This document shows positions 688 to 22,762 of a stretch of 32,000 nt of DNA, piece after piece. Under the pieces are notes generated by a model, which made no database searches, was not told where the DNA came from, and saw only the letters and a program-made list of their open reading frames with translations. Location of the stretch: contig LYOS01000002.1 in NCBI GenBank assembly GCA_001766815.1, forward strand, positions 354,577 to 386,576, written 5' to 3'. The translations under genes were made by a program, and so were the position numbers. This DNA is from Candidatus Syntropharchaeum caldarium. Lineage in GTDB: Archaea; Halobacteriota; Syntropharchaeia; Syntropharchaeales; Syntropharchaeaceae. Each line of letters opens with the position of its first letter. Position 1 is the stretch's first letter.

Positions 688-1524
688 TCAGTAACTGTTT
701 GTCCAGTTGTTCTGGTATGTTGATGCTGTCACATTGCTGCCTGCGGCCGAGAAGTCAGGGATTGACCAGCTTCCAGTCTCGTTCTCTGATGCTGAGAACT
801 CAAGCACGACGTTCTTTGTCCACGAGATATTGACACCAACCCCTGTATGACATCCAATGCAGGCTTCGTTCGCATCCTCCATCATGGTAACATTCTCAAT
901 TGAATCCAGTACGAACTTCTTGTGGGCTGCTAAGCTTCCTGTATCTGATGTGTTGATCGTCAGGTTGAAGCCCCCCGCTGGTGGGATGTAATACACATCT
1001 CCAGTAGCGGCATTTGCATGGCATCGACGGCAATCCTCATTATTTGTATATGCGCCCTCGTGAGCAGGCCTGTTGTTTGGATTCTGATTTGGAGCCTGAT
1101 GGCATGACCAGCAGTTAAAGCTTGCTGCATGTATCGGGGTCACGCCAGATTTATCCCCGCTGTGGCAGTACATGCAGGGAACGGTGGATGCGGCATGAGC
1201 CTCTTTTCCAGGTGTTGAACCCGTACCATCCCCAGATGCATATGTGTAATTTGTAAAGCTCGCATTCTGGCGGTAGATGGGGAACAACCTGTGACAGTAT
1301 CCACACTCCATCCTCCCATATCCGGTCTCACCTGAGTGAGCCGAGACGAGTGAGTTCATCTCATCCGCGATATCCCCATGACACTTCTCACATGGTAGAT
1401 CATTACCGCTCACATTCAGATTATACCATGAATGTTGCCCTGAAAAGAGTGCAACTGTCTGGGGAAGCGCGAATATACCTGTCATGATAACCGCAAGCAT
1501 CAGAAGCAAATGCGTCCTCCTCAT
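688..1524 (-). CDS. Multihaem c-type cytochrome with six CxxCH motifs and an N-terminal signal/anchor.
   Basis: The haem motifs are CEKCH, CGYCH, CMYCH, CWSCH, CRRCH and CIGCH. The N-terminus is hydrophobic and there are many NxS/T sequons. I prefer the ATG at 1524, preceded by GAGGTGA, over the GTG at 1533. Confidence 0.85.
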   Translation of the reverse strand: MRRTHLLLMLAVIMTGIFALPQTVALFSGQHSWYNLNVSGNDLPCEKCHGDIADEMNSLVSAHSGETGYGRMECGYCHRLFPIYRQNASFTNYTYASGDGTGSTPGKEAHAASTVPCMYCHSGDKSGVTPIHAASFNCWSCHQAPNQNPNNRPAHEGAYTNNEDCRRCHANAATGDVYYIPPAGGFNLTINTSDTGSLAAHKKFVLDSIENVTMMEDANEACIGCHTGVGVNISWTKNVVLEFSASENETGSWSIPDFSAAGSNVTASTYQNNWTNSY

Positions 1525-1558
1525 TTTTATCACCTCTATTGAAACCTATCGAGGGGTT

Positions 1559-1572
1559 GCATATAAAAAATT
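1559..1572 (-). promoter_or_regulatory. Candidate archaeal TATA box for the downstream cytochrome gene.
   Basis: The minus strand reads AATTTTTTATATGC about 40 nt upstream of the ATG at 1524, in the 119-bp gap between the two cytochrome genes. Confidence 0.3.
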
Positions 1573-1652
1573 TGTGGACATGAACGGTGTAAAATCGAGC
1601 ATCCCTAATGATTATTGGAATAAAAAGAAAAAATTGAGAGATCAGCAGTGAT

Positions 1653-2411
1653 TCAGTAACTGTTCGTCCAGTTGTTCCTGTATGTTGATGCTGTCACATT
1701 GCTGCCTGCGGCCGAGAAGTCAGGAATTGACCAGTTCCCATACTCATTCTCTGATGCTGAGAACTCAAGCACGACGTTCTTTGTCCAGGTGATGTTGACA
1801 CCAACGCGGGTATGGCATCCGATGCAGGCTTCGTTCGCACCTTCCATCAAGGACTCGTTCATCGCATCGAGCACAAACTTGCGGTGGGCTGCTTTCTCGC
1901 CTGTATCTGTGGCGGTGGTGTTATGTCCAGGGTTCGCAGGGTCTTCTATCCCGAAGCCACCGGCTGAGATGAAGTCGGAATATCCTCCACTCCAGTGACA
2001 TTTGTCACAGTTACCACTGTATTCTGAATAACTCCAGTGGTCCCATGTATAATACGAGCCATGATAGATCTCATGATAGATCCCATGACAGTCCATACAC
2101 TCGACCGTGGATGCTGCATGTGCTTCCTCGCCAGCGGTTGAACCAGAGCCCTCGCCACTGGCATAGGTGTAATTTGAAAAACAGGTTCTGTGGCACATCG
2201 CACACGTCAGATTACGATGCGCACCATTATCGCTATCTATCATCTCATCTGCTATATCACCATGGCATTTTTCACATGGAACATCATTGGGTCCTGCTGA
2301 GAGGTCATACCAGCTGTGCTGCCCTGAAAAGAGTGCTACCGACTGCGGGAGTGCGAATATTCCTATTGTAATCACTGCAACAAGCAGTAGCGAAAGATTC
2401 TTATGATTCAT
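1653..2411 (-). CDS. Multihaem c-type cytochrome with five CxxCH motifs; a tandem paralog of 688..1524.
   Basis: The haem motifs are CEKCH, CAMCH, CMDCH, CDKCH and CIGCH. The N- and C-termini are nearly identical to the neighbouring gene. The ATG at 2411 is preceded by GGAGG. Confidence 0.85.
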   Translation of the reverse strand: MNHKNLSLLLVAVITIGIFALPQSVALFSGQHSWYDLSAGPNDVPCEKCHGDIADEMIDSDNGAHRNLTCAMCHRTCFSNYTYASGEGSGSTAGEEAHAASTVECMDCHGIYHEIYHGSYYTWDHWSYSEYSGNCDKCHWSGGYSDFISAGGFGIEDPANPGHNTTATDTGEKAAHRKFVLDAMNESLMEGANEACIGCHTRVGVNITWTKNVVLEFSASENEYGNWSIPDFSAAGSNVTASTYRNNWTNSY

Positions 2412-2635
2412 CAATAGCCTCCAATATCATTGATTTAATATTATTACCCTGTGTACCCTTAATAAATATTTCGATCGCGAAAGAATAAAAAGTCCTTTCT
2501 GCACATACAATACAGATAGATTTATCATCATCCATCTCAAGTCAAAAGAGCTGGAGTTTTTAAAACAGTTCCACCTCTGGGTAACAAAGACTTAAGAAGC
2601 TGTGTGATCTTCTCTCTATAGGAAAGGGCTGATCT

Positions 2636-3562
2636 ATGAAATTCGTTGTAACAGGAGGAGCAGGTTTTATCGGCTCGAATCTGGCAGAAGAACTTGCTGA
2701 GATGGGGGAAGTCACGATCATCGATGACCTATCATCCGGGCGACTTGAAAATATCTCTGACCTGCTCGATAAGAATAATGTGAACTTTATCAGGGAAAGT
2801 ATTGCCAATTTGACGTCTCTCAAAGCACATTTTGCGGATGCTGACTGTGTATTCCACCAGGCCGCGATAGCTTCAGTCCAGAGATCGGTAGAAGATCCAC
2901 TGCTGATCGATGAGGTGAATGCAAGGGGTACGCTGAATGTTCTGATTGCAGCGCGTGATTGTGGGGTTAAAAAAGTGATCTGCGCATCTTCATCAGCGGT
3001 TTATGGCGACAGCCCGGAACTTCCGAAGCGAGAAGATATGAGTCCCTGCCCCCTCTCTCCTTATGCTGTCTCGAAGTTAACAGGCGAATACTACTGCAAA
3101 GTCTTTTCAGAGATCTATGGGATCGATACCGTCTCCCTCAGATATTTCAATGTCTATGGTCCAAGACAGGACCCCTCTTCCGAGTATGCGGCGGTTATAC
3201 CAAAGTTTATAAAAATACTGCTCAAAAAAGAGCCGCCCGTGATATTTGGAGACGGCACGCAGACACGAGATTTTGTCTTTGTTGAGGATGTTGTTAGAGC
3301 AAATATTCTGGCGATGAAACATGGTAATGTACGGGGAGTATTCAATGTGGCAGGTGGCAAGAAAATAACGATCAATGAACTTCTGAATACGATCATGGAG
3401 GTTGTGGGTATCGAGCTGGACCCCATTCATACTGAGCCAAGAGCAGGAGATATCAAAGATTCTGTGGCTGATATATCGTTGGCTAAGAACGTGCTTGGGT
3501 ATGAGCCAGCGTTCGATCTGAAAGAGGGGTTAAGTCGAACCATAAATTGGCTCAGGGAATAA
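2636..3562 (+). CDS. NAD-dependent nucleotide-sugar epimerase/dehydratase (UDP-glucose 4-epimerase family).
   Basis: It has the Rossmann motif GGAGFIGSNL and a YxxxK-type SDR core (SPYAVSKLTGE). At 308 aa its length is typical. Confidence 0.85.
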   Translation: MKFVVTGGAGFIGSNLAEELAEMGEVTIIDDLSSGRLENISDLLDKNNVNFIRESIANLTSLKAHFADADCVFHQAAIASVQRSVEDPLLIDEVNARGTLNVLIAARDCGVKKVICASSSAVYGDSPELPKREDMSPCPLSPYAVSKLTGEYYCKVFSEIYGIDTVSLRYFNVYGPRQDPSSEYAAVIPKFIKILLKKEPPVIFGDGTQTRDFVFVEDVVRANILAMKHGNVRGVFNVAGGKKITINELLNTIMEVVGIELDPIHTEPRAGDIKDSVADISLAKNVLGYEPAFDLKEGLSRTINWLRE

Positions 3563-3564
3563 AA

Positions 3565-4654
3565 ATGCCAGAAGAAGAATCATATCTGAATGAGTCGCTT
3601 CGTAAAGTTGCGAAAGGAGGGGGAATAGTTTTTGCAGGGACGTTCATCGGGTTGTTTCTTGGATATCTCTCAAGGATGGTCATTGGAAGATGGCTTGGCA
3701 CTGCTGATTATGGCCTGATCTCACTTGGATTTGCAGGGATGTCTATCGCACTAACACTTTCTATGGTTGGATTACCCGCTGGTATAACAAGATATGTATC
3801 TTACTACAAAGGTAAAAATGATGCAGGACGGATCAAGGGCACGATAATTGGGGCCTTGCAGATAAGTCTTCCCTTGAGTCTGATCTTTGCTTTTATTTTC
3901 TTCATTGGTGCTGAGTGGATCTCAACCAATTTCTTTAACAAACCAGAACTGGCGCCTGTTTTGAAGATATTCTCGATGGCAATCCCCTTTTATGTTCTGA
4001 CTCAAAACTTCCTTTCTACAACAATCGGGCTTCAGCATATGCAGTATAGCGTTTATACAGAACATATCTTCCAGAATATCTTCAAGATAATTGCGATTGT
4101 AATCCTGCTTCTTTTGGGGTTGGTGTTTCAGGGGCAGCATGGGAATGGGTTCTTGCAATTGTGTTAATGCCATTTCTGGCTTTTTATTTCCTGGAAAAGA
4201 AAGTCTTCCCTCTTTTAAAGAGCGATATAAAAGCGGTGTCCATGAAGAAGGAGCTTTTTTTATTCTCTTTCCCGCTGGTTTTCTCTGGTATTGCGGGTAT
4301 GATCACAACATGGACTGATACACTTATGCTGGGTTATTTTTGCACGGCATCGGATGTCGGGATTTCTGATACCGCGCTTTGGAATAGAGGGGGCAGCAAT
4401 TGCAACCTCCTTTTCGCTCATATTTGGAGTGACTTTCAATTTTGGTGTTGTTTACCACCTGACTAAAGTACATCATCGGTGTTACCCTCATCTCGATGGT
4501 GATGATGCTCCCGGTTTTTCTGATTCTCTACCTGATTATACTTCTACTTGTGAAAGGGTTTGAGGAAGTGGATCTGATGATAATGCGTGCGATAGATGAA
4601 AAGCTCGGGATGAATACAGGCTGGGTAAGGAGGTTAATAGGCAGATTTTTGTAA
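3565..4654 (+). pseudogene. Polysaccharide biosynthesis flippase (Wzx/PST family) broken by at least three frameshifts.
   Basis: One continuous multi-TM protein can be read only by hopping frames near 4110-4125, near 4350-4390 and near 4465-4475. The final frame ends ...VRRLIGRFL* at 4654. Confidence 0.7.
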
Positions 4655-4669
4655 AGAGATGGATCGCTC

Positions 4670-5425
4670 TCACTTTTCACTTAGCTCTGGATTTAATCCA
4701 CCTTTGACATTCTCTTCCATGAGCTTTCCTGTGACCTCCCACAGTTCCTCAGCATCCCTGTATCCAACTGTAGAAATGCCGTATATAATCGAATTTGCTA
4801 TGAGATCCTTCTCCTCACCGGGGGCGCCGATCGGTATTGGCCTATTAATCGGTATCGCCATCTGGTTCTTGGTATAGAGGACGGTGTTATTTGCCCTATC
4901 ATAACGGTATCTCTGCCGTGCATCGAACATCAGCCCATCCTCATCCAGCCGCATGGCGGAGCCATGAACCGTGATACCACGAATCGCTGTTCTCGCAGTG
5001 TCAAAGACCTCAGTCTCGATAAGCTCTTTTGCATACTTTTCAAGATCTCGCTCCCTCGCTTCCATAAGCTCTCTTCCTGAGTAGCAGATCGTATCAACGC
5101 CGCGATAACGTGTATGATACATCCTCCCCCTGAATACAGGTGTTATTGGTGAGTGGTGAACCGAGTCTGTGAACTGGATATAACGTATCTTATCCCCGCT
5201 CTGTGCACCCGGTGTTGGCTCAATGAGATCTCTTATCGGATCTTCTATCTCTTTAAGTTCATCAAGCGGTGGATGCACCGATCTGTACTGCTCTCCAGGA
5301 TTTCTGTGTCCAAGCAGCACAACGAGGTCATCATCCGATACCTCCCTCAGGCGCCTCAGTTTCGTATCCTTATCAAGGATCATTCTTCGCCTCTCGGCAA
5401 CTCTATCTGTACCTGGATAAATCAT
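4670..5425 (-). CDS. mcrG: Methyl/alkyl-coenzyme M reductase gamma subunit.
   Basis: It is 251 aa. YPGTDRVAERRR...LLGHRNPGEQY matches the McrG N-terminal pattern. The RBS GGGAGGT is embedded in the last codons of the upstream gene. Confidence 0.9.
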   Translation of the reverse strand: MIYPGTDRVAERRRMILDKDTKLRRLREVSDDDLVVLLGHRNPGEQYRSVHPPLDELKEIEDPIRDLIEPTPGAQSGDKIRYIQFTDSVHHSPITPVFRGRMYHTRYRGVDTICYSGRELMEARERDLEKYAKELIETEVFDTARTAIRGITVHGSAMRLDEDGLMFDARQRYRYDRANNTVLYTKNQMAIPINRPIPIGAPGEEKDLIANSIIYGISTVGYRDAEELWEVTGKLMEENVKGGLNPELSEK

Positions 5426-5429
5426 CTTT

Positions 5430-7094
5430 TTACCTCCCTGGTTTTATTGGATCGCGGTCGCCCTCTGGCATGAATTCCTGCTGTGTACCACGAGCGATCT
5501 CCCTGCGCGGATATTTGAAATTAAACGGTAGTTTTGAATCTGCAAACGCCACCTTTACCACCGGGCTTAAGCACCACGCATCACCACGCGCAGCATGTGC
5601 CGAGACAATGGCTGATGCAGATGTGGCAACCGTGATGGCATTTGTGGAGTCTGAAGAGAAGTTTGGACTCTTGAATTCAGGAACAAGTCCCTCGTCAGGT
5701 ATCATAGATGCCGCAAAGGCGAGGTTGAGGTGATCGATTGAATCCTGTCCACCAAAAGACCCCCTGCCCCATGCCTCTTTCATGAGATATGCCTGTGCAT
5801 AATTGTATCCTATCATTCCCGCGAGTGAATGTCCTGTTGCAAGTCCTGAACTCAAACCAGCAAGTGTTGAGAGCATTACAACCCGCTGAGCACCTCCCCA
5901 GTGGTGTTCAAGTAGAAGCGGGTAGCGATTGTACTCCTCCATCAGGTGGAAGGTCATCTCGTGGGTGACATCCCTGATCACATCAAATGACGGTTTAGCC
6001 ATGGCAAACCCACCATATCGATCTTTTATCCAGTCTGCGATATAGTTTGTCTCCTCTTCAAGGACGTTGTTTGTATATATGACCGCGCCTGCATTGACGC
6101 CACCGATACCCCCAAGCACGTAGGAGTTTACCCACATGTGGAGATAGTAGTAGATCGAGAGTGCCATGCTCTCAACGCAGTAGCTCACAGGATCCCCCTC
6201 ATTGACCGCATCTGCCTGACAGAAGTCGCCCACGTACCCATAAGGTACTCCTACAGGCTCACCAGGTCCTCTTCCTCTGCGGGGCCATGAAGGTGTCCCA
6301 AGCAGTACATACTGCATATGCTTGGATGTCAGTGAGAAATCTGCAAGTACCGCACCGCCCCCAAGTGCGTACGCAGTTATAAATGCGAGTGTGGTCTGAT
6401 TCGCCGCCCATCGGTGGACGATACCAGCGTCAGAGATTCTGACCGCGATCGTGGGAATACGTGTGGCCTGGAAGAGGCGTTTACCAATTCCTTCTTTCAG
6501 ATCTTCTGCCTGCTTCTCAGGATACTCTTTATCTATATCGATGATATACTGGTCATCGATGTGATCTAAAAGTTCATCATTTCCGCTCATGAGCTTTACA
6601 GACGCATCTTTTGTCATCGCAGGATTTATCTCTGGCATATGTTCCTGTGCAACTGCACCACCAACAATGGTGTGGTTTGCAACCTCGAGATATCTGTTTA
6701 TTGTCTCAGGTGTTACGGTTGCTCCGATTCTGACCTCGAGCATCTTGTGTGCCATATCAAGCCCTGCTATCGCGGTTCGCTTGATATCGTCCCCAAGCTG
6801 TTGCATTGCAGCGTTGTTTATCTGGTGAAGATCTTCAGCCTCACACATCGTCTCGGTTCCAGATATGTAGTATGGTTCGATGAAACGTTGTCCCAGCGGA
6901 ACACCCATATCATCCCGATCTCCTTGATAGCCCGTGAGACCGCGTTCTTTAAGAAGCTCCTTTGCCAGCTTCACATATTCCTGCTTGCGTTTTGATTGCT
7001 TCCACCCCCCAAACTGGAAGAAGGTTGTATACTCACGTGTTGCATCGTCTTCATCAAACGTTGCCATCAAAAGATCTATTGCCTTTTTTTTCAT
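5430..7094 (-). CDS. mcrA: Methyl/alkyl-coenzyme M reductase alpha subunit; highly divergent and probably of the alkyl-CoM reductase type.
   Basis: It is 554 aa with McrA hallmarks: GGWKQS, NNAAMQQ, PRRGRGPGEPVG, WGGAQR and AHAARGDAW. The active-site stretches differ from canonical McrA (see findings). Confidence 0.9.
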   Translation of the reverse strand: MKKKAIDLLMATFDEDDATREYTTFFQFGGWKQSKRKQEYVKLAKELLKERGLTGYQGDRDDMGVPLGQRFIEPYYISGTETMCEAEDLHQINNAAMQQLGDDIKRTAIAGLDMAHKMLEVRIGATVTPETINRYLEVANHTIVGGAVAQEHMPEINPAMTKDASVKLMSGNDELLDHIDDQYIIDIDKEYPEKQAEDLKEGIGKRLFQATRIPTIAVRISDAGIVHRWAANQTTLAFITAYALGGGAVLADFSLTSKHMQYVLLGTPSWPRRGRGPGEPVGVPYGYVGDFCQADAVNEGDPVSYCVESMALSIYYYLHMWVNSYVLGGIGGVNAGAVIYTNNVLEEETNYIADWIKDRYGGFAMAKPSFDVIRDVTHEMTFHLMEEYNRYPLLLEHHWGGAQRVVMLSTLAGLSSGLATGHSLAGMIGYNYAQAYLMKEAWGRGSFGGQDSIDHLNLAFAASMIPDEGLVPEFKSPNFSSDSTNAITVATSASAIVSAHAARGDAWCLSPVVKVAFADSKLPFNFKYPRREIARGTQQEFMPEGDRDPIKPGR

Positions 7095-7099
7095 GATTT

Positions 7100-8434
7100 T
7101 TAACCCCCTATCTCCTCTGCAGCCTCTGCAATTCTTGAAAGTGGATCTTTTAAGACTGGGAGCACCTCTCTGAGCTTGAAGATATGCTTTGATGTAACTT
7201 CTGGCATGTACATCTGGGTTCCGGCATCAAGACACATCGCAGCAACAGCACATGGGATTATGAAGCCCTTTGAACCTTTGGTTACAACATGCTCCCCAGA
7301 GAAGATCCCAACCTCTCCACCGCCGTAACTATTGTGTGTCAGCCATTCAAAGAGTGTGGCAGTCCCAAGCGCCCTTCCAAAGTCAACACCAGGGAGCGAC
7401 GTTGCTAATGCAAGCAGATCACTGTAGAACTGCATCGCAGACGGTACACCCTGGGCAGACCTTGACGCTCCTGCATTCTGGATCGCTGCAGCAAGGAGCC
7501 CCGCAGATGCGTAGGCGTTCCACATCGAGGCATCGTGGGTCGAGTACATCTCATATCCTGAAGGGAGCTTCTTCTCAAGCTCGATAATACCGTCTCGAAG
7601 CGCACGTTCGGTGACATCCTCGATTATATCGAGCACTGTAGCGTTCCCATGATCGCGTACAAGCTCATACACCATGTTTTTTGCGTTTAAACCCTGATAA
7701 GCCATGCCAAGCAGGTGATAACGCTTGTAAGGGCCTATCGCAGCACCTGATTCAAATGCTGCTGCATGTTCCAGCACCGAGCTTAGTGCAACCGCATCAA
7801 AAGTGCGTCTGCCAGCCAGCGCAACGATCGTATTGACAGAAGGCGTCCTGTATGCAACACCTGCCCCCTCGATATGCATTGGGAATGAGAGGAGCGTTGA
7901 GACTGCTCCACCTGAAGGGGTAACAGTCTGCGGGAACCTGCCCATGATGGCACATTTAACCATATCAACACCATCAAATATTCCAAGATTGAACTCATCA
8001 ATGATCGCATGGGCAAGTGCTGTTGCTGGAAGCAGATACGCCTGCGTATATTCTGTCCCTGTCTCAAGCATGATCGATGGTATCTGAACGATTAGCAGGG
8101 AGTCAAGTATCTCAAGTCTTGTATCATCATCATCCGCGACTTTGAGCATCTCGCGCATCCGCTCTGCGATAGAAGCTGCATGCTCTTTGATGGGCAGATC
8201 AACCTCTCTCCCAAGAATTCTGCATTCACCACCGACAGCCATCGTGTTTCCAACGCTACCGCTCTTGAGTGAAGTTTCAAGCTTATTTAAATCGATTATG
8301 GCAGTGCGTTTAAGTGTATGTAGAATCTCCCTTATCGCACTGTTTTTATAAGGGCTTAGTGCATCATAATGAATATTTTCTGCAACAGACACACCACGAT
8401 CGTTATAAATCGTAAATCTATCGCTATCATTCAT
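7100..8434 (-). CDS. mcrB: Methyl/alkyl-coenzyme M reductase beta subunit.
   Basis: McrB-like sequence runs throughout: LGMAYQGLNA, MWNAYASAGLLAA and SKGFIIPCAVAAMCLDAGTQM. I prefer the ATG at 8434 (MNDSDRFTIYNDRG) over the TTG at 8449. Confidence 0.9.
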   Translation of the reverse strand: MNDSDRFTIYNDRGVSVAENIHYDALSPYKNSAIREILHTLKRTAIIDLNKLETSLKSGSVGNTMAVGGECRILGREVDLPIKEHAASIAERMREMLKVADDDDTRLEILDSLLIVQIPSIMLETGTEYTQAYLLPATALAHAIIDEFNLGIFDGVDMVKCAIMGRFPQTVTPSGGAVSTLLSFPMHIEGAGVAYRTPSVNTIVALAGRRTFDAVALSSVLEHAAAFESGAAIGPYKRYHLLGMAYQGLNAKNMVYELVRDHGNATVLDIIEDVTERALRDGIIELEKKLPSGYEMYSTHDASMWNAYASAGLLAAAIQNAGASRSAQGVPSAMQFYSDLLALATSLPGVDFGRALGTATLFEWLTHNSYGGGEVGIFSGEHVVTKGSKGFIIPCAVAAMCLDAGTQMYMPEVTSKHIFKLREVLPVLKDPLSRIAEAAEEIGG

Positions 8435-8472: not shown

Positions 8473-8512
8473 AAAAAATAGTTAGTATTAAAAGTAAAAA
8501 GGCCTGAAAAAC

Positions 8513-8647
8513 TCAAGCCTTCGATTCAAGCTCTTTTATAAGCATCTCTTTCAGGGTTTTTGCATTATCTTTTGAAAGCTCAAGCTCAACCCGACCAAGC
8601 GTAATCAGCCTCGCACCGCTCCTCGTCAGATTTACTTCTATCTCCAT
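8513..8647 (-). CDS. Small 44-aa protein, paralogous to the N-terminus of the 116-aa protein upstream. It is not in the ORF track.
   Basis: My own translation is MEIEVNLTRSGARLITLGRVELELSKDNAKTLKEMLIKELESKA*. An RBS, TAGGTG, lies 7-8 nt upstream. It aligns with MEIEVYKTARGRFLLTIGRLDIELDEEDANTLKTKLE of 8657..9007. Confidence 0.6.
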   Translation of the reverse strand: MEIEVNLTRSGARLITLGRVELELSKDNAKTLKEMLIKELESKA

Positions 8648-8656
8648 ACACAACAC

Positions 8657-9007
8657 CTACTTGATGTAACTATCCGCGATCCTGCGTGTAGCTTCAATAT
8701 CTGCCTTCATCCCGAGTTCAAGGATGTTCTTCAGCGTCGCCTTTGTGTACTCGCCTCGCATGAACTGGGTTGCAAGCCCCTTTTCTCTTGGCCACATCTC
8801 AATCTTTGCTGATGTGATCAGGACAAGCATATCTTCCCTGAAGTTTTCAAGCTCGTCCTCATCGAGTGTAAGCAGTCCTTCGAGCCAGTCTGTCATCTCA
8901 AGCTTCGTTTTGAGCGTGTTTGCGTCTTCCTCATCCAGTTCGATATCGAGACGTCCTATCGTGAGCAAAAACCTGCCACGCGCTGTTTTATAGACCTCGA
9001 TCTCCAT
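8657..9007 (-). CDS. Hypothetical 116-aa protein, acidic and predicted helical.
   Basis: An intact ORF with RBS GAGGTGG, 9 nt downstream of the ATPase gene. I do not recognise a family. Confidence 0.6.
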   Translation of the reverse strand: MEIEVYKTARGRFLLTIGRLDIELDEEDANTLKTKLEMTDWLEGLLTLDEDELENFREDMLVLITSAKIEMWPREKGLATQFMRGEYTKATLKNILELGMKADIEATRRIADSYIK

Positions 9008-9016: not shown

Positions 9017-10447
9017 TCATACATATGGTGTGAGCTTCAGCGTTGGAGATCCGTCAACAAATACAGTATCAACGTTGTAAATCCACGTCTCAGGTTTAAT
9101 TCCATAGAGCACAACAGTTCGATCGAGCGTAGTGAGTTTGAGATACTTGCTCGCCATGTCAACAAGCTCATCCCTGATGGCAAGGTTTGGTGTGACTCTC
9201 ACGATATCAACATTACCTCTCTCCTTGGTGGTCTCAATATTCACGCTAATCTCTTTTATTCCTGTACTTAACTCTCCGATCTCTTTCAGGCGGTAAGGGA
9301 ATTCAAGCATATCAGCACCGATAAAACCAATAACTGGTGATTCTTTCGAGATTTTATGCTCCCTTATTGTCCGCAGGTCATCCTTTATCGAGTTACCTTT
9401 GAGCGGCACCATATTTTCACGTGGTTCTGCTCCTTCTGGATGGATCTCAAAGACAGTCAAATTTTTTCTGTACTTATCCTCATCGACAAAAGGCCCCAGG
9501 ACCTTTCTCCATCGAGCTTCATTTCTACCACAGCATGGAAGCGCCACGACCGGATGATCATTCTGTATCGCGTTGATGAAAGTTACACCGACAATAGCCT
9601 GATAGCCCCATCCAGAGATGTCATCCCCGACCTCGAAGACGTTGAACGAACCTCGCCTGAAACCACCTCCAAGGATCTTGTCGAGATCTTCACTTCCTGA
9701 AGATACAAAATTTCCCTTATCGGGTATCGGTTTTACCTTTGTAGGCCCTGTTGGAGGTATTGACTTGATCCCAAACGGATTGAAGATCTGAAAACGCCCA
9801 TCCAGTAGTGTAAATGGGTATTTTGGTTGATCGATACGTGTCCGCCTTAACTTGGACATGTAGATCTCCCTTACACGCCTGTACTCGATCATGATATCAT
9901 TGAATACGACGATACCGTCAACAAGGTAATCAAGTGTTGTAACATCCATCGTCTCACCTGTTAGAATGAGGTTGATGTTACGTTCTCGCACAAGTTCAGT
10001 CACAAGTGCCTCAAGCCTTGCCATCTCAACCGGCTCACACTGTAGCTTTATCGCATCCCAGCTATCGATCACAACCGTGACCCCTTCCCCCATCTCACTG
10101 ATCCTTCTTGCAAGTACCTCAGGGAATGTCATTGTTCCGGTCATTGCAGACGTATATACCGTGTAATCGGTCGGGACATAGATCTTGCTCGTGTCTATAA
10201 TATTTATCGGTTCGATACACTCCTCAAGCCATGGGAAGTGTGTGTAGAGTGCTTTTGGCGAGACCCTTGTTGAAAGGTAAATCCCCTCTCCGCCTACTGC
10301 ACGAAGCAGTTCAAGTGCTAAGGAGGTTTTGCCCACACCTGGTCTCCCTTTCAAGAGGAGTGAGAAACCCCCTGGCTTTTCGATAGCTCTCAAAAGTTCT
10401 GCAGGAACGTGCGTCCTGCTCTCTTCGGCACCACTTAATTCAGCCAT
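9017..10447 (-). CDS. KaiC/RecA-superfamily P-loop ATPase (GvpD-like, two-domain).
   Basis: It has a Walker A motif, LLLKGRPGVGKTSLALELL, and a Walker B-like VVIDSWD. The length is about 476 aa. An alternative GTG start lies at 10456. Confidence 0.7.
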   Translation of the reverse strand: MAELSGAEESRTHVPAELLRAIEKPGGFSLLLKGRPGVGKTSLALELLRAVGGEGIYLSTRVSPKALYTHFPWLEECIEPINIIDTSKIYVPTDYTVYTSAMTGTMTFPEVLARRISEMGEGVTVVIDSWDAIKLQCEPVEMARLEALVTELVRERNINLILTGETMDVTTLDYLVDGIVVFNDIMIEYRRVREIYMSKLRRTRIDQPKYPFTLLDGRFQIFNPFGIKSIPPTGPTKVKPIPDKGNFVSSGSEDLDKILGGGFRRGSFNVFEVGDDISGWGYQAIVGVTFINAIQNDHPVVALPCCGRNEARWRKVLGPFVDEDKYRKNLTVFEIHPEGAEPRENMVPLKGNSIKDDLRTIREHKISKESPVIGFIGADMLEFPYRLKEIGELSTGIKEISVNIETTKERGNVDIVRVTPNLAIRDELVDMASKYLKLTTLDRTVVLYGIKPETWIYNVDTVFVDGSPTLKLTPYV

Positions 10448-10660
10448 ATTAATCACAATAGTTCATTATAGATCTTATCCTATTTAAACTTTTGTATTCT
10501 TACATCATTTTCAATTAGAATTCCGCTGAATTTTACACGATGTTACCACCGAAAGACAGAACCTCTTCATCAAAATAGAATAAGTTTATTAATGATAAAC
10601 TTTAATAATGATAATTAGGTGGATCTATGATAAATATATCTCTTGGAGGCAAGATTTAAG

Positions 10661-11332
10661 ATGATTACAGGTGAACGCAAGGATCTCGAAGAGCTGATGG
10701 AGATCGTTAAAACATACAACAGTCTCGCTGTCGTTGGATGCGATGGCTGTGTGGGGATATATCAGATAGGTGGGTTCAAAGAGGCGGAATCGCTTGCATC
10801 GCTCTTGAAGATGGGGGATAAGATCAAGAATGGTGTTGTTCAGGATGCAGAGGCATTTACCGTTATCAGGCAGTGTGATAAGGAGCTTATCGAGAAGGAA
10901 CTTGGTGGAAAACTTGATAAATTTGAGGCGATAGTCTCGACTGCATGTGGTGTCGGTGTCCAGACGATGGCAGCGGTATTCGAGGATAGGGTCGTTTATC
11001 CAGCTCTGAACACACTATTCATGGGAGCGCAGGATCGGGAAGGGGCGGAGCTTTATGAGCTGTGTAAAGGATGCGGTGACTGTGTGCTCCATTTAACAGG
11101 TGGGATCTGCCCCATGACTCGATGCGCAAAAGGACTCCTCAACGGTCCCTGTGGTGGGGCGGTTGATGGTAAGTGCGAGGTGGGCGATTACACGAATGAC
11201 TGTGCATGGGTTCTGATCTACGAAAAGTTGAAATCAATGGATCGACTCGACCTGTATACAACTTTCCGTTTACCGAGGGACAGAAGGCCGTCAATGAGCC
11301 CAAGAAAGCTTGCAGGGGGTGCAAAGTATTGA
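10661..11332 (+). CDS. metV: MetV-like protein (methylene-tetrahydrofolate reductase C-terminal-domain family, Cys-rich).
   Basis: It carries the motif GGICPMTRCAKGLLNGPCGG together with CKGCGDC. GGAGG lies 10 nt upstream of the ATG at 10661, and the TTG at 10643 overlaps that RBS. Confidence 0.75.
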   Translation: MITGERKDLEELMEIVKTYNSLAVVGCDGCVGIYQIGGFKEAESLASLLKMGDKIKNGVVQDAEAFTVIRQCDKELIEKELGGKLDKFEAIVSTACGVGVQTMAAVFEDRVVYPALNTLFMGAQDREGAELYELCKGCGDCVLHLTGGICPMTRCAKGLLNGPCGGAVDGKCEVGDYTNDCAWVLIYEKLKSMDRLDLYTTFRLPRDRRPSMSPRKLAGGAKY

Positions 11333-11352
11333 CTGAAGTTTATAGCGACTTG

Positions 11353-12252
11353 ATGAAGAAGATCAAGGAGGGCAAGTTTGTTTTTACAGGTGAGCTTGAG
11401 CCTGAGAAGACGACAGATCTCACCGAGCTTGTTGAGAGCGCCAAAAAACTTCTTGGTCACTGTGTTGCGTGCAATGTGACAGATAACCCCCAGTCAATGG
11501 CTTACATGTCAAGCCTCGTGGCATCACATATCGTCCAGCGTGATTCAGGGATGGAGTGCGTCTATCAGCTCAGGTGTTCTGATAGAAACTCGATTGCGTT
11601 AACATCAGATCTTCTGGGGGCGGGTGCACTTGGCATCAGGAACGTTCTTGCCTTAACAGGCGATCATACATCTCTGGGGGATTATCCAGGGTCGATGCCT
11701 GTCTTCGATCTTGATTCTGGGCAGCTTGTATATCTGATCAGGCGCATGGTGGATGAGGGGGTTGATCTCAATGGAAAGCCGATAGAACATCCACCCAGGT
11801 TCCACGTAGGCGTGGCTGGAAACCCAAACGCAGACCCGCTCGATTCTGAGATCTTGAAGCTCAAACGGAAGGTCGAGGCTGGGGCTGAGTTTGTCCAGAC
11901 ACAGGTCATATTCGATATTGAGATTGCAAAGACGTTCCTTAAAGAGATGGAGAAGTACAAGGTCCCGGTCTTAATCGGCATTTTCCCGCTCAAGAACTAT
12001 GGAACAGCCGATTACTTCGATAAGTATATTCCAGGCGTGCACGTGCCAAAAGATCTTCTTGCAAAGATGAAAGAGGCATCGGAGATCGGAGACAAGAAGA
12101 AGAAGATGGAGCGGTATGATGAGATAAACCTCGACTATTACGGAGATTTTGTCCATGAAATCGCACATAACACCTCTGCTGCTGGAATACATGTCATGGC
12201 GGTGGCTTATGAGCGGATAACCCCACCACTTATCGAGTGTGCGAAAATATGA
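11353..12252 (+). CDS. metF: MetF-type 5,10-methylene-tetrahydrofolate/H4MPT reductase.
   Basis: The N-terminus GKFVFTGELEPEKT matches MetF and the fold length is about 300 aa. An alternative TTG start at 11329 overlaps the metV stop (TTGA) and follows a GGGGGTG RBS. Confidence 0.8.
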   Translation: MKKIKEGKFVFTGELEPEKTTDLTELVESAKKLLGHCVACNVTDNPQSMAYMSSLVASHIVQRDSGMECVYQLRCSDRNSIALTSDLLGAGALGIRNVLALTGDHTSLGDYPGSMPVFDLDSGQLVYLIRRMVDEGVDLNGKPIEHPPRFHVGVAGNPNADPLDSEILKLKRKVEAGAEFVQTQVIFDIEIAKTFLKEMEKYKVPVLIGIFPLKNYGTADYFDKYIPGVHVPKDLLAKMKEASEIGDKKKKMERYDEINLDYYGDFVHEIAHNTSAAGIHVMAVAYERITPPLIECAKI

Positions 12253-14210
12253 GTCGGGATGAGATAAAAATCGGGGTCTATGTCTGCCACTGCGGGATAA
12301 ACATCGAGGCGACGGTTGATACTGCAAGGGTTGCTGAGTTTGCCTCTCACCTACCAGGAGTTGTTGTTGCAAGAGACTACAAGTATATGTGTTCAGATCC
12401 TGGCCAGGAACTGATCAGGGAAGATATGCGTGAGCTTGGGGTAAACAGGGTCGTTGTTGCATCCTGTTCACCCAGAATGCATGAACCAACATACAGAGCG
12501 GTACTTGCAGAGACGGGTGGGAATGAATACTGCTTCGAGATGGCAAATATCCGTGAGCAGTGCTCATGGGTTCATAAGAACAGAGAAGAAGGTACAAAGA
12601 AGGCGATGGATCTTGTAGAAGGGGCTGTTGCCAGGGCCTACCTGCTTGAACCACTTGAGCCAAGAGAGGTTGATGTAATCCCTGCGTGTCTCGTCATCGG
12701 GGGTGGTGTTTCGGGGATCTATGCCGCACTTGGTGTTGCAGAGAAGGGATTCAAGACCTATCTTGTCGAGAAGACGCCTTCGATCGGTGGACACATGGCA
12801 CAGCTTGATAAAACTTTTCCAACGCTGGACTGTTCGGCATGTATTTTAACACCCAAGATGGTCGATGCCGCAAGACACCCCAATATCGAGCTTATGACCT
12901 ACTCAGAGGTTATGGATGTCTCAGGATATGTCGGTAACTTCAACGTTACAATCCGTAAGAAGCCGAGATATATCGATATCGACCTGTGTACAGGCTGTGG
13001 GCTTTGCGGTGAGGCGTGCATCCTTTCTGGAAAGATCCCCAATGAGTTTGATATGAAAAAGGGAAAACGGGGGGCGGCATATGTTCCATTTCCACAGGCA
13101 GTGCCTTTGAAGTACACGATCGATCCTGAAAATTGCATCTTCCTGAAGAAGGGCAAGTGCGGAAAGTCACCAGCCTGTCAGGAAGCCTGTCCAAGAGATG
13201 CAATAGATTTCACGCAACGGGAAGAGATCGTTGAGATTGAAGTTGGATCGATCATCATCGCAACAGGTTATGACCTCTTTGACCCGTCCACAGAACCGCA
13301 GTATGGGTACGGACTTCCGAATGTGATAACAGGCCTTGAATTTGAGCGTCTGATCAATGCATCAGGTCCAACCGGTGGCAAGGTGCTTCTTGAGAATGGA
13401 GAGTATCCCAAAAAAGTTGTTCTGATCCAGTGTGTCGGATCAAGGGAGATCGGGGGTAGATCGTACTGTTCGCGGTTCTGCTGTATGTATACCGCAAAGC
13501 ATGCACACCTGATCGAGGAGAAGATAGAGGGTGCAGAGGTTACAGTTCTATATACTGATGTCAGAGCGTTTGGGAAAGGATTTGAGGAGTTTTACAACCG
13601 TGTCAAGTCGGAAGGAATCAACTACATCTGGCGTGATCTATATGCGTCGATCGAGGTGACACAGAACGGTGATGGCCTGAAGGTCAAAGCAGAAGGTGTT
13701 GGACCCATCGAGCTTGATGCTGATATGGTCGTGCTTGCAACCGCTGCTGTTCCATCCCGGGATGCAAAAGAGATCGGAAGCGTTCTCAAGATCCCGGAGA
13801 GTCCTGACGGCTTTTTCATGGAGTCCCATCCCAAGCTCAAGCCGATCGATACAGCATCTGATGGGATATTCCTTGCAGGCTGCTGTCAGTCACCAAAAGA
13901 CATTCCTGATTCGGTCGCACAGGCGTGTGGAGCGGCTTCCAGGGCTGCGATCTCACTCTTCAGGGGTAAGGTGCCGATCGAGGTTATCTCATCCCAGATC
14001 AATGAAGAGATCTGCTCAGGCTGCAGGATGTGTGAAGAGATCTGTGCCTATGGTGCACTTAGCTTTGACGAAGAAAAAGGTCTTATGACCGTGAATGAAG
14101 TGCTGTGCAAGGGGTGCGGTTCATGCGCTTCGACATGTCCATCAGGTGCGATTACGATGAAACACTACAAGGATGCGCAGATATTTGCGCAGATCGAGGC
14201 GGTGGTTTGA
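12249..14210 (+). CDS. hdrA: Heterodisulfide reductase subunit A (canonical architecture).
   Basis: It shows VCHCGINI, CSPRMHE, NIREQCSWVH, GGGVSG, LDCSACILTPK, an inserted 2x[4Fe-4S] ferredoxin domain, CSRFCCMY and a C-terminal 2x[4Fe-4S] domain. An ATGA overlap links it to the metF stop. Confidence 0.9.
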   Translation: MSRDEIKIGVYVCHCGINIEATVDTARVAEFASHLPGVVVARDYKYMCSDPGQELIREDMRELGVNRVVVASCSPRMHEPTYRAVLAETGGNEYCFEMANIREQCSWVHKNREEGTKKAMDLVEGAVARAYLLEPLEPREVDVIPACLVIGGGVSGIYAALGVAEKGFKTYLVEKTPSIGGHMAQLDKTFPTLDCSACILTPKMVDAARHPNIELMTYSEVMDVSGYVGNFNVTIRKKPRYIDIDLCTGCGLCGEACILSGKIPNEFDMKKGKRGAAYVPFPQAVPLKYTIDPENCIFLKKGKCGKSPACQEACPRDAIDFTQREEIVEIEVGSIIIATGYDLFDPSTEPQYGYGLPNVITGLEFERLINASGPTGGKVLLENGEYPKKVVLIQCVGSREIGGRSYCSRFCCMYTAKHAHLIEEKIEGAEVTVLYTDVRAFGKGFEEFYNRVKSEGINYIWRDLYASIEVTQNGDGLKVKAEGVGPIELDADMVVLATAAVPSRDAKEIGSVLKIPESPDGFFMESHPKLKPIDTASDGIFLAGCCQSPKDIPDSVAQACGAASRAAISLFRGKVPIEVISSQINEEICSGCRMCEEICAYGALSFDEEKGLMTVNEVLCKGCGSCASTCPSGAITMKHYKDAQIFAQIEAVV

Positions 14211-14212
14211 GG

Positions 14213-15928
14213 ATGAAGATACTTGTATTTATCTGCGGGTGCCAGGGAAAGATCGAGGAGGTGCTTGATCTCGATGCACTCTCAGCCTTCACATCCACGA
14301 TCGAGGACGTCGAGGCAGTGAAGATCGATCGATACCTCTGTGGTAAGGAGGGTCTCTCGCTCTTCAAAGAGGAGGTTATGCGTGTTAAGCCCGATCGCGT
14401 GATCATTGCTGGATGCTCTCCCCGTCTTCATGGCGAGATATTTGCAGAGGCGCTAGAAGACGCTGGTATGAATCCACACCTCAGAGAGCATGTGAACATC
14501 AGAGAACAGTGTGCATGGGCGCACTTCGATGATTTAGATGGTGCAAACCGCAAGGCAAAGAAGCTCATGGAGATGGGGATTGCAAAGGTCAGGCTCAAGC
14601 GACCGCTTGACAAGATTAATGTAGAGATGAAACCAGCAGCTCTTGTTATTGGTGGTGGTGTTTCTGGTATGGAAGCAGCTTTGGATCTTTCAAATGGTGG
14701 TTTCAAGGTTTATCTTGTTGAACGAGAAGCTGAACTTGGTGGACGAGTCAAACGATTGAGCCAGACATTTCCCACTGTTGGATGCGGCATCTGCTGTATG
14801 CATGACTGTCCTGATTGTGTACTCACACCACAGGTGGAGGAGGTCTTATCTGATGAGAATATCGAGGTCTTAACCTCCACGACCGTTGAGAAGGCGGATG
14901 GCTTTATTGGAAACTATAAAGTTAGACTCACCGGTGGCGGAGAGATCGATGTTGGAACTGTAATAATTGCAACAGGAACCAAGACTTTTGATCCGAACCG
15001 TATTCCTGAGTATAGCTATTCCTCAGCCGATGTCATAACCTCGCTTGAGCTTGAGGATCTCTATATGAAGGCACGGTCAGATGGTGGCCAGATAAAGCGC
15101 CCCTCAGATGGTAAGATCCCTGAATCCATCAACTTCATCCAGTGTGTTGGATCAAGAGGGATCAAGGGTGGAAATCCGTACTGCTCGATCGTCTGCTGTA
15201 TATATGCACTTGGCCATGCGAGGGAGTTCAAGTCCCGCTACCCGGACGCTGAAGTTACCATTCATTACATCGATCTTAGATCACCCTATCGTGGATTTGA
15301 GGAGTACTACAACGAAGCACGTGATATGGGTGTTAACTTTGTAAGAGGAGAGATTGATAAAATTGAGGAGCGAGAGGACGGTGTCTATATTATGGGCACC
15401 AATCGAGATACAAAGGAGAGATATGAGATGAAATCAGATCTCGTAGTCCTCTCAGTCGGGCAGGAACCAGCGGATAATACGCGTGAGCTTGCAAATTTGT
15501 TCAACCTTGAGCTTGATCAGGACGGATTCTTTTTAGAGAAAAACCTGCGGCTGATCGGGGAGGATACATCGGGTGTCTATGTCGCTGGCGCAGCCAATGG
15601 TCCAAGAAATATACGTTACTCTGTCGCAGACGGAAGGGTTATGGCTGAAGCTGCCATCGAGCGAATCGGTGCTGAGAGAATCCTGCTTGAGGGGGTTGTT
15701 GCCAGAATTGATCAGGACCTCTGCATCAAATGTGCGACATGTCTTGAGGTATGCCCATACGGGATTGTTGAAATTGTCCGTGAGGATGCAGAAGAGATAC
15801 GTCTCGAGGTGCTTGAGGGTGGATGCAGGGCATGCGGGATATGTGCTGCTGAGTGCCCAGCATCTGCGATACAGCTTGAGGACTTCAGGGATGATCAGAT
15901 ACTTGCTGAGGTGGAGGTTGCGATATGA
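14213..15928 (+). CDS. HdrA-like flavoprotein, a variant lacking the inserted ferredoxin domain.
   Basis: It shows ICGCQGK, CSPRLHGE, NIREQCAWAH, GGGVSG and the new Cys motif CGICCMHDCPDC, plus CSIVCCIY and a C-terminal 2x[4Fe-4S] domain. The ATG lies 2 nt after the previous stop. Confidence 0.85.
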   Translation: MKILVFICGCQGKIEEVLDLDALSAFTSTIEDVEAVKIDRYLCGKEGLSLFKEEVMRVKPDRVIIAGCSPRLHGEIFAEALEDAGMNPHLREHVNIREQCAWAHFDDLDGANRKAKKLMEMGIAKVRLKRPLDKINVEMKPAALVIGGGVSGMEAALDLSNGGFKVYLVEREAELGGRVKRLSQTFPTVGCGICCMHDCPDCVLTPQVEEVLSDENIEVLTSTTVEKADGFIGNYKVRLTGGGEIDVGTVIIATGTKTFDPNRIPEYSYSSADVITSLELEDLYMKARSDGGQIKRPSDGKIPESINFIQCVGSRGIKGGNPYCSIVCCIYALGHAREFKSRYPDAEVTIHYIDLRSPYRGFEEYYNEARDMGVNFVRGEIDKIEEREDGVYIMGTNRDTKERYEMKSDLVVLSVGQEPADNTRELANLFNLELDQDGFFLEKNLRLIGEDTSGVYVAGAANGPRNIRYSVADGRVMAEAAIERIGAERILLEGVVARIDQDLCIKCATCLEVCPYGIVEIVREDAEEIRLEVLEGGCRACGICAAECPASAIQLEDFRDDQILAEVEVAI

Positions 15929-17634: not shown

Positions 17635-18359
17635 AGATTCTTGTATTCTGCTGTGACTGGTGTTCCTACCCAGGTGCGGATCTTGCAGGCATCCTGAGGC
17701 TTGAATATCCACCAGAAGTCAGGATCATAAAGGTGATGTGCTCAGGCAGGGTGGATCCGATGCTCGTGCTCGATGCGTTGAGGCAGGGAATTGATGGCGT
17801 GATGGTGACAGGTTGCCATCCTGGTGAATGCCACTACGTCCACGGGAATATGGAGGCTGAGCGAAGGATTGAGCTTCTAAGATCAATATTTGAGAGATCT
17901 GGGATAAACCCCAGGCGTGTGAGGATTGAGTGGATCTCGGCATCAGAGGGTGAAAAGTTTGCAGAGGTTACACGTGCATTTAAACAGGAGATCGATGAGA
18001 TTGGACCCATCAATCAAGGTGAGATCGATGCAGCAGAAATCATCCATGATGTATTCTCATCAGAGCGGGCAAGACTTGTCCTTGGCGCTTCAAGGCGTGC
18101 GATCGAACTTGAGGGCGTTGATCCTCTCTGGTATAAAGGGGTTCTTGAGCGTACGGTGCGAGAGGAGGTTTTGCGTGAGCGGATACTCAGAGAACTGCGA
18201 AAGAGTGGTGCCCTGAGCGCACATGAACTTGCAGAACGGATCGGTGAACCAGCAAAGGAGATCTTCTGGAACTTGATCGCGATGAAACGAAGGCAGATCA
18301 TTCTTGATATGGGGATAGTAGATGATTCACTCAAGTTTGCCATACAGGAGGGTGTGTGA
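17631..18359 (+). CDS. mvhD: MvhD-like [2Fe-2S] protein with a C-terminal extension of about 110 aa (possible winged helix).
   Basis: The N-terminal part, FCCDWCSY...VMCSGRVD...VTGCHPGECHY, matches MvhD. Residues from about 128 to 242 are extra and include ILRELRKSGALSAHELAERIGEPAKEIFWNLIAMKRR. An ATGA overlap links it upstream. Confidence 0.85.
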   Translation: MKILVFCCDWCSYPGADLAGILRLEYPPEVRIIKVMCSGRVDPMLVLDALRQGIDGVMVTGCHPGECHYVHGNMEAERRIELLRSIFERSGINPRRVRIEWISASEGEKFAEVTRAFKQEIDEIGPINQGEIDAAEIIHDVFSSERARLVLGASRRAIELEGVDPLWYKGVLERTVREEVLRERILRELRKSGALSAHELAERIGEPAKEIFWNLIAMKRRQIILDMGIVDDSLKFAIQEGV

Positions 18360-21804: not shown

Positions 21805-21820
21805 AGTTCTGCCAGAGGGA

Positions 21821-21890
21821 GGTATATACGAAGTTTACTTCCGATATACCGCTAAATTTGAAGGATATACGACATTGATGTCGTATATAA
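21821..21890. other. Two adjacent core-type recombination-site candidates, 17 bp downstream of the integrase stop.
   Basis: Site 1 (21821-21850) reads GGTATATACGA-AGTTTACT-TCCGATATACC (11-8-11). Site 2 (21863-21890) reads GGATATACGAC-ATTGAT-GTCGTATATAA (11-6-11). All four half-sites fit GG(T/A)TATACGA. Confidence 0.6.
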
Positions 21891-21900
21891 ATGAGCAGAT

Positions 21901-21957
21901 GCGCAATTGAGGTTTTGCCCTTCGGGTTACTCACTTCGTTCGCAATTCTCAATCGCC
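21901..21957. repeat. Structured repeat A (hairpin carrying a degenerate copy of the shared core).
   Basis: GCGCAATTGAGG (21901-21912) pairs with TTCTCAATCGCC (21946-21957). The loop contains TTCGGGTTACTCAC. The right arm recurs inverted at 22080-22091 (GGCGATTGAGAA). Confidence 0.5.
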
Positions 21958-22036
21958 TTAATCCCTCACTTCATTTAACAGCAAAAAATAAGACAAGTGA
22001 TTAAAAAGAATGTGAAATTAAAACTTTACATAACGA

Positions 22037-22312: not shown

Positions 22313-22346
22313 GAGATTTAAAAACAAAAAATAGAAGGTGAAATAA

Positions 22347-22544
22347 ATGGCAAGAAAGGTGTGTGTATTGTGTGGGAAACAACACGGAATAATGCCATCT
22401 TCACCATTGGGGAAATGGCATCAATGCACAAACTGCGGACGGATATACTGCGATAGCTGTGGTGCAAAACTTAGAAGAGCAGGAACACTATCTCGTGAAC
22501 GCATATGCCCACATTGCGGAAATGAAACCACGTTGATTCCCTAA
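22347..22544 (+). CDS. Small double zinc-ribbon protein (65 aa).
   Basis: It has four CxxC pairs: CVLCG, CTNCG, CDSCG and CPHCG. The RBS AAGGTGA and a TATA-like TTAATATAT lie upstream. Confidence 0.7.
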   Translation: MARKVCVLCGKQHGIMPSSPLGKWHQCTNCGRIYCDSCGAKLRRAGTLSRERICPHCGNETTLIP

Positions 22545-22716: not shown

Positions 22717-22762
22717 GTATCAGAAAATAAAAATATAGGAATAATTGTATGGAGGTTAAAAG

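Follow-up and report, generated by a model that had tools for sequence, protein, structure and literature searches.

In canonical MCR (methyl-coenzyme M reductase), the channel around the arm of coenzyme B (CoB) is lined by Phe alpha330, Tyr alpha333, Phe alpha443, Phe beta361 and Tyr beta367, where residue numbers, here and below, are those of Methanothermobacter marburgensis MCR I. Gln alpha147 is the axial ligand of the nickel, Lys256/His257 and Arg270/Arg271 clamp the phosphate of CoB and include the methyl-histidine and methyl-arginine positions, and coenzyme M (CoM) is held by His beta364 and Tyr beta367. The gene considered here, acrA, encodes an McrA-like alpha subunit and lies on a 32,000-nucleotide stretch of contig LYOS01000002.1 (assembly GCA_001766815.1) of Candidatus Syntropharchaeum caldarium, known in the literature as Candidatus Syntrophoarchaeum caldarius (Ca. 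S. caldarius); the whole stretch is referred to as the window, and its positions are used throughout. Judged from the sequence, acrA belongs to one of the four alkyl-coenzyme M reductase (ACR) operons published for this organism and encodes its catalytic alpha subunit, probably (at about 0.75) with a pocket remodelled for a multi-carbon alkyl group. This is considered the best explanation because the anchors of the cofactor and the coenzymes are retained while positions 330 and 333 have become Gly and Ala.

The thermophilic enrichment Butane50 is the source of Ca. S. caldarius and Ca. S. butanivorans (Laso-Perez et al. 2016, cited through PMC9118554 and PMC9081873), and each of the two genomes carries four divergent sets of MCR homologues (PMC9118554, PMC9081873). 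The culture forms butyl-CoM and propyl-CoM from the respective alkanes, is inhibited by 2-bromoethanesulfonate (BES), and uses no methane, ethane, pentane or hexane (PMC9118554, PMC9081873). An alignment of the ACR residues that hold cofactor F430, CoM and CoB has been published by Lemaire and Wagner, and the homologues of Syntrophoarchaeum and Methanoliparia carry more active-site substitutions than the methane enzymes (PMC9118554). The glutamine at alpha400 is often replaced in ACRs, and a single-residue deletion in loop 239-246 has been noted in some ACRs of Syntrophoarchaeum, Methanoliparia and Helarchaeota; AlphaFold2 models of other ACRs show that it opens a cleft leading to the CoM site (PMC9118554). 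In ethyl-CoM reductase (ECR), a wider chamber and a tunnel come from insertions and modified residues (PMC9118554).

The gene bears on how alkanes beyond ethane are taken in by MCR-type enzymes, and no biochemical data were found in the literature for any Syntrophoarchaeum or other C3+ ACR. A full-text search for Phe330/Tyr333 together with ACR gave no paper in which these substitutions are listed residue by residue, and the accession of the alpha subunit, OFV68281, is absent from searchable paper text and may appear in figures. The gene, the organism and the active-site substitutions of Syntrophoarchaeum ACRs are nevertheless already known, since the published review covers both the substitutions and the loop deletion and the window has both; the residue map adds detail, not discovery. 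For the OFV68281.1 operon this map supplies positions in the alpha, beta and gamma subunits that can serve for mutagenesis or modelling.

The acrBAG operon and the identity of its alpha subunit

The operon is arranged in the order acrB-acrA-acrG on the minus strand, to which all operon coordinates below refer, with spacers of 3-5 nt and no open reading frames (ORFs) between the genes. The acrA gene (5430..7094) is an intact ORF of 554 amino acids (aa), whose product contains the Pfam domains MCR_alpha_N (2.3e-100) and MCR_alpha (5.6e-29) and in phmmer searches of PDB chains matches solved MCRs at E ~1e-153. All 554 of its 554 residues are identical to GenBank OFV68281.1, an entry on a 410,801-bp contig of Candidatus Syntrophoarchaeum caldarius whose annotation names the alpha subunit of methyl coenzyme M reductase. 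An independently made assembly of run SRR3669912 matches window positions 1758..7229 at the DNA level without a difference (100% over 5,472 bp) and has the same flanking genes. It is virtually certain that the gene is the published Ca. S. caldarius McrA homologue OFV68281.1.

The mcrB-like gene acrB (7100..8434) encodes a beta subunit of 444 aa, counted from an ATG at 8434, with the Pfam domains MCR_beta_N and MCR_beta and with a PDB match to 5a8k_B (4.7e-126). The program-made ORF is 449 aa long and starts at a TTG at 8449; this is probably the wrong start, because the relatives begin at MND..., and alignment with these relatives together with the sequence itself indicates that the ATG at 8434 is probably the right one. 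The mcrG-like gene acrG (4670..5425) encodes a gamma subunit of 251 aa (Pfam MCR_gamma, 3.8e-93; PDB match 1e6v_C, 1e-84). Over the three subunits the Pfam E-values range from 1e-29 to 1e-100. Neither mcrC nor mcrD was found in the acrBAG operon, by ORF list or by Pfam. Between 8455 and 8522, 5′ of the acrB ATG, a hairpin that resembles a terminator and has a T-run (8522..8498) precedes an A/T-rich stretch of TATA-like character, and this arrangement suggests that acrBAG may be a separate transcription unit. A promoter scan with a sigma-70 model, a model not applicable to archaea, gave no enrichment.

The proteins belong to the MCR/ACR superfamily by their McrA domains and fold, the co-encoded beta and gamma subunits, and the retained cofactor-binding residues. 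Against the NCBIfam equivalogs for the true enzyme (the TIGR03256/TIGR03257 set), the alpha subunit scores 580.6 bits, below the cut-off of 767.75, and the beta subunit 457.9 bits, below the cut-off of 516.25; the gamma subunit, at 294.3 bits, is above the TIGR03259 cut-off of 172.1. An ACR-type enzyme from an oxidiser of multi-carbon alkanes is supported.

Register of the motifs and composition of the active site

An earlier note on this DNA had read two altered active-site motifs in the alpha subunit by eye, against the McrA of M. marburgensis. Motif 1, GGIGGVNAGAVIYTNN, occupies 6066..6113 (alpha residues 328-343), exactly where the note had placed it, and its two proposed changes, Phe330 to Gly (G332, 6099..6101) and Tyr333 to Ala (A335, 6090..6092), were confirmed in every computed alignment. 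Motif 2, SFGGQDSIDHLN (alpha residues 446-457), keeps F443 (F447) and, as had also been claimed, Gly445 (G449) and Asp450 (D454), while Tyr444 is changed to Gly (G448), Tyr446 to Gln (Q450) and Cys452 to Leu (L456). Its position, read earlier as 5724-5774, needs amending at one end: the lower bound stands and the upper bound is 5759 (5724..5759), the stretch up to 5774 taking in the preceding AWGRG.

The HMMER pairwise alignment to M. marburgensis MCR II (5a8r_A, E = 9.8e-153) has no gaps across either motif and sets GGIGGVNAGAVIYTNN against GGVGFTQYATAAYTDD and RGSFGGQDSIDHLN against RLGFYGYDLQDQCG. MAFFT, run on 64 full-length homologues, gives identical motif columns, and in Foldseek the AlphaFold2 model of the alpha subunit is almost collinear with 1mro_A and 5a8k_A (554 columns, TM-score 0.96, root-mean-square deviation (rmsd) 1.8 Å), the range for solved McrA chains being TM-score 0.95-0.96 and rmsd 1.8-1.9 Å. 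The model, an alpha monomer folded without F430 or coenzymes, has a mean predicted local distance difference test score (pLDDT) of 85 and a predicted TM-score (pTM) of 0.90. Because the HMMER, MAFFT and Foldseek alignments concur, the register of the motifs is correct, and no Phe or Tyr falls at the positions claimed to have lost them. The offsets to MCR I are +3 at Q147, +2 from H257 to Y333, +3 at Q400 and +4 from 443 to 482, which reproduces the +2 to +4 estimated by eye, and the anchors KH, PRRGRG, GGAQR and AHAARGD that had guided the eye are all found; the equivalent of R271 is R273. Canonical McrA in the alignment has F at 330 and Y at 333 in 33 of 33 sequences, and Y or F at 444 in 33 of 33. 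Given this invariance, the substitutions at 330, 333 and 444 are real and not noise.

For canonical MCR, modelling has placed the methyl of methyl-CoM in a cavity that Tyr333, Phe330 and HS-CoB enclose (bioRxiv 10.1101/2021.01.25.428124), which makes 330 and 333 the fitting positions for a change. Directly upstream of motif 1, at 6117..6131, L320 is replaced by V322 and M324 by V326, and at 5637..5645 M480 is replaced by T484 and V482 by A486, with N481 kept between them (N485). Asn481 contacts the CoB thiol in canonical MCR, and the role of Val482 is taken from the same source (bioRxiv 10.1101/2021.01.25.428124). Overall, most of the bulky residues around the methyl/CoB-arm site of canonical MCR are lost by the alpha changes L320V, M324V, F330G, Y333A, Y444G, Y446Q, M480T and V482A. 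The summed side-chain change is about -566 Å3 for these eight shrinking positions and +58 Å3 for C452L, figures that are bookkeeping only and not a pocket volume. The canonical ring at alpha 330/333/443/444 and beta 361/367 reads G, A, F, G, W and Y in the window. In loop 239-246, YAL-GGGA (6351..6371) stands against canonical YKLCAGEA, with a one-residue deletion that appears as a gap in both the HMMER and the MAFFT alignment.

The residues that bind F430, CoM and CoB are retained in the computed alignments: Gln147 (Gln150 at 6645..6647, in HMMER and MAFFT), the conserved Lys256/His257 (K258-H259) and Arg270/Arg271 (R272-R273), which lie within 6276..6320, Asn481, beta His364 and Tyr367, and gamma Arg120. 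Gln alpha400, the 2-methylglutamine position, is kept as Gln403 (5886..5888). Tyr alpha333 and Tyr alpha444 are not conserved. The active-site loop of the beta subunit, FEWLTHNSY (7325..7351; canonical FSFFSHSIY), changes F361 to W364 and F362 to L365 and keeps H364 (H367) and Y367 (Y370). In the gamma subunit, the motif YSGR (5072..5083) keeps Arg gamma120 as Arg118, and Tyr115, three residues earlier, takes the place of a Leu in solved MCRs. In canonical MCR, Arg gamma120 forms a salt bridge with the CoM sulfonate (bioRxiv 10.1101/2021.01.25.428124).

On the proposed mechanism the enzyme would share the F430/CoM/CoB radical chemistry of MCR and run it oxidatively, converting alkane + CoM-S-S-CoB to alkyl-S-CoM + HS-CoB. 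The emptied pocket and the cleft would accommodate an alkyl group of several carbons, C3-C4 or other, and beta Trp364 and gamma Tyr115 might re-pack the opposite side of the site. Action on a multi-carbon alkane is likely; that it is the small residues that create the room for the larger substrate is somewhat less secure, yet still held to be the probable arrangement.

Sister paralogues and competing explanations

By alpha identity the closest relative is that of Syntrophoarchaeum sp. MCW7076082.1 (76%), followed by Syntropharchaeia and Alkanophagales/Alkanophaga relatives (61-59%, with the Ca. Alkanophaga cluster MDF2955404.1 / MDF2957193.1 at 59%), Ca. S. butanivorans OFV65745.1 (58%) and OFV67100.1, another paralogue in Ca. 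S. caldarius itself (56%). All other matches, every canonical MCR among them, are only 39-46% identical. A neighbour-joining tree places the window alpha subunit in a divergent ACR clade of 21 members with Syntrophoarchaeum and Alkanophaga, well apart from the 33 canonical sequences. Position 444 is Gly in all 21 of these, and 330 and 333 are non-aromatic throughout. The sister alpha subunits resemble that of the window in their length (552-555 aa), the B-A-G order, the absence of an aromatic at 330/333, Gly444, and the deletion in loop 239-246. In the four relatives whose operons were examined, the B-A-G order without mcrC or mcrD is common to all, and the likeness extends to beta F362L and Tyr367 and to the gamma change of Leu to Tyr before Arg120.

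The sister alpha subunits differ from that of the window in other positions. The Gln at alpha400 is kept in the clade by the window alpha only, the other 20 having I, V, M or H; Gly445 is kept in five of the 21 members, the window included, with A, S, I or V in several others, and Asn481 in three of the 21, again with the window, most others having P or S. Among the Ca. S. caldarius homologues, a 2022 review names only OFV68676.1 as keeping the alpha400 Gln (PMC9118554). The pocket stretches of the two Ca. S. caldarius copies also differ, with GGVNAGA and FGGQD in the window against GGPNTFA and VGVGD in the second copy.

Several explanations have to be weighed against that of a remodelled ACR. 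An ordinary methane MCR, its substitutions being an artefact of alignment by eye, might be argued from the PDB search, in which canonical enzymes match best (E ~1e-153) and the ethane enzyme less well (3.7e-103); the search ran against a PDB copy whose only enzymes of this type are those for methane and a single one for ethane, with no C3+ ACR. The artefact is ruled out by three computed alignments, gap-free at the motifs, and by the canonical invariance at 330 and 333, while an operon without mcrC or mcrD in a culture that does not use methane speaks against an ordinary MCR; the chance of this explanation is negligible. A decaying or catalytically impaired paralogue, in which the losses of Tyr333, Tyr444 and Cys452 would reflect relaxed constraint, is very improbable. 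The lost Tyr alpha333 is a CoM contact, the alpha and beta subunits fall below their equivalog cut-offs, and model confidence is low at residues 448-452, all of which would suit decay. The three ORFs are, however, intact and tightly packed, 46 columns including the cofactor ligands are invariant across 45 diverse McrA sequences, the operon order is conserved in relatives, and the same substitutions occur in all members of the clade, across several genera. The clade-wide pattern at 330/333/444 therefore points to selection rather than decay. Most Syntrophoarchaeum MCR homologues are, moreover, abundant in transcriptomes and proteomes according to reviews (PMC9118554, PMC9081873).

A functional but spare ACR paralogue, with a substrate or direction other than butane or propane oxidation and with substitutions that tune specificity among multi-carbon substrates, is unlikely, though it is the rival with most in its favour. 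It might act on another hydrocarbon, perform sub-terminal activation only, or form alkanes. Room for such a role exists in genomes with four paralogous operons, in the strong pocket differences between the two Ca. S. caldarius copies and in the unusual retention of Gln400, Gly445 and Asn481; in Alkanophaga a single Acr is highly expressed whatever the substrate (PMC10322722), and both activation at several carbons and back-flux to butane have been reported (PMC10322722, PMC11543930). Against it, the culture is supported by propane and butane only, and nothing in the sequence points to a specific alternative. It is also conceivable, and rather doubtful, that the window enzyme is a distinct functional type of ACR, as Gln400, Gly445 and Asn481 are kept and yet its ring is among the most emptied (Gly332/Ala335/Gly448). 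Such a type would bind unmodified or differently modified F430 along with the canonical residue modifications, would be specific for a substrate or regio-isomer of its own (choosing, for instance, between propane and butane or between 1- and 2-alkyl-CoM), and would explain why Syntrophoarchaeum keeps four operons.

The preferred reading, an ACR alpha subunit with a pocket remodelled for multi-carbon alkyl groups, also has observations set against it. Tyr333 hydrogen-bonds CoM in canonical MCR, and its loss could affect catalysis. The pLDDT of the monomer model falls below 50 only at residues 448-452 (5739..5753), the equivalent of the thioglycine loop Tyr444-Leu448, which in the assembled MCR complex contacts CoM and other subunits. 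The remodelling is not uniformly toward small residues, because beta F361 becomes Trp and the gamma Leu becomes Tyr. ECR (7B1S) keeps Tyr333, Phe443 and Tyr444 and has Trp at 330, where the window has Gly, Ala and Gly at 330, 333 and 444; small residues are thus not the way in which the only characterised ACR fits its larger substrate. Ca. S. caldarius is a minor population, about 5% of the culture's archaea, and the part it plays there is described as unclear (PMC11543930). In Alkanophaga, strong expression is confined to the Acr with an acrA separate from acrBG, the other two being low (PMC10322722); the Alkanophaga relatives of the window alpha have an adjacent B-A-G layout, and for this reason the window-type operon probably corresponds to the low-expressed sets. 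The suggestion in the earlier note, that Gly and Ala in place of aromatics are what is expected of an enzyme for larger alkyl groups, is consequently upheld in part: it agrees with the ACR-type identity and clade and with changes in the very residues of the methyl cavity, and it is at odds with the aromatics of ECR and with the enlarged residues in the beta and gamma subunits.

Genomic surroundings and comparison with solved enzymes

The genomic context of the operon (thiolase, cytochromes, metVF, HdrA/MvhD, CfbB) fits the published physiology. On the plus strand, at 10643..20317, metV-metF are followed by four HdrA-like genes, two of them HdrA2-like by score, and an MvhD/FlpD gene, all divergent from the acr operon and a KaiC-like gene. 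Directly beside its related, 58% identical counterpart of the acr operon, Ca. S. butanivorans (L004) carries metV-metF-hdrA-mvhD. A CfbB-like gene for Ni-sirohydrochlorin a,c-diamide synthase, an enzyme of F430 biosynthesis, lies at 28590..29948 (minus strand); it scores 543.8 bits for NF033195, just below the cut-off of 560, and also 534 bits for the cobB subfamily, with a cut-off of 261. GatD lies at 30300..31553, and the window also contains a thiolase fragment. A pair of adjacent genes for multihaem cytochromes c (688..2414, minus strand) are apparent paralogues, a 92-bp stretch at 793..884 in one being 89% identical to about 1758..1849 in the other (L001 mapping), and such a pair would suit the passing of electrons to a partner bacterium.

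Upstream of acrB lie tandem small ORFs with similar N-termini (within 8500..9007, minus strand), one of 116 aa at 8657..9007 that starts MEIEVYKTARGRFLLTIGRLDIELDEEDANTLKTKL and one of 44 aa from 8647 that starts MEIEVNLTRSGARLITLGRVELELSKDNAKTLKEML, and neither has a Pfam match. Further upstream is a KaiC/GvpD-like ATPase gene (9017..10456). The ATPase and the small ORFs were considered as part of the acr system and rejected, as they are not next to the operon in four relatives. A Wzx-like Polysacc_synt gene is split into overlapping ORFs at 3547..4167 and 4161..4466 (plus strand), probably by a real frameshift or as a pseudogene, because an independent assembly (L001) shows the same split. 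A tyrosine integrase gene at 20749..21804 (plus strand) precedes a region at 22-26 kb with a G+C content of 0.39, against about 0.47-0.50 elsewhere, and 20749..26000 may be an integrated element. No tRNA genes or Rfam matches were found in the window.

Among the solved enzymes, the MCR of anaerobic methanotrophic archaea of group 1 (ANME-1; 3SQG) is the weakest PDB match to the window alpha subunit (5.4e-100, 33% identity). It is a methane enzyme with Val at 400, fitting methylthio-F430 (PMC9118554), where the window keeps Gln. ANME-1 is a sister lineage in the class Syntrophoarchaeia, and both lineages have metF in place of mer (PMC10322722).

The canonical MCR I/II of M. marburgensis (5A0Y, 1HBN, 5A8R) are 42-44% identical to the window alpha subunit and have a collinear fold (rmsd 1.8-1.9 Å). 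The two share Gln147, Lys256/His257, Arg270/271, Gln400, Phe443, Gly445, Asp450, Asn481, beta His364/Tyr367 and gamma Arg120. They differ by L320V, M324V, F330G, Y333A, Y444G, Y446Q, C452L, M480T and V482A in the alpha subunit, by beta F361W/F362L, and by the one-residue loop deletion, and the window alpha falls below the NCBIfam equivalog cut-off. The operon is BAG in the window and BDCGA in M. marburgensis; the canonical mcr order is mcrBDCGA or BDGA, with the accessory genes mcrD/mcrC (PMC9081873).

The ECR of Ca. Ethanoperedens thermophilum (7B1S/7B2C) belongs to the same three-subunit family and has the same fold (TM-score 0.93-0.94, with 581-596 columns and 34-35% identity in Foldseek); in the sequence search 7b1s is matched over query residues 84-552 only, in two stretches (3.7e-103). 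Tyr446 and Cys452 are replaced in both ECR and the window alpha. The axial ligand is Met in ECR (7b1s, and also the ECR-like representative among the homologues, P0097), whereas it is Gln150 in the window alpha; the Met ligand is present in Ethanoperedens and is not universal among ethane oxidisers. A 603-aa homologue, P0063, was considered as ethane-type and rejected, its best PDB matches being canonical MCRs. The ECR alpha subunit is 595 aa long, and insertions in the alpha, beta and gamma subunits of ECR build a 33 Å ethane tunnel; the window alpha has 554 aa and is without these insertions. As ECR keeps the aromatic ring that is lost here, it serves poorly as a template for the class of ACR found in the window.

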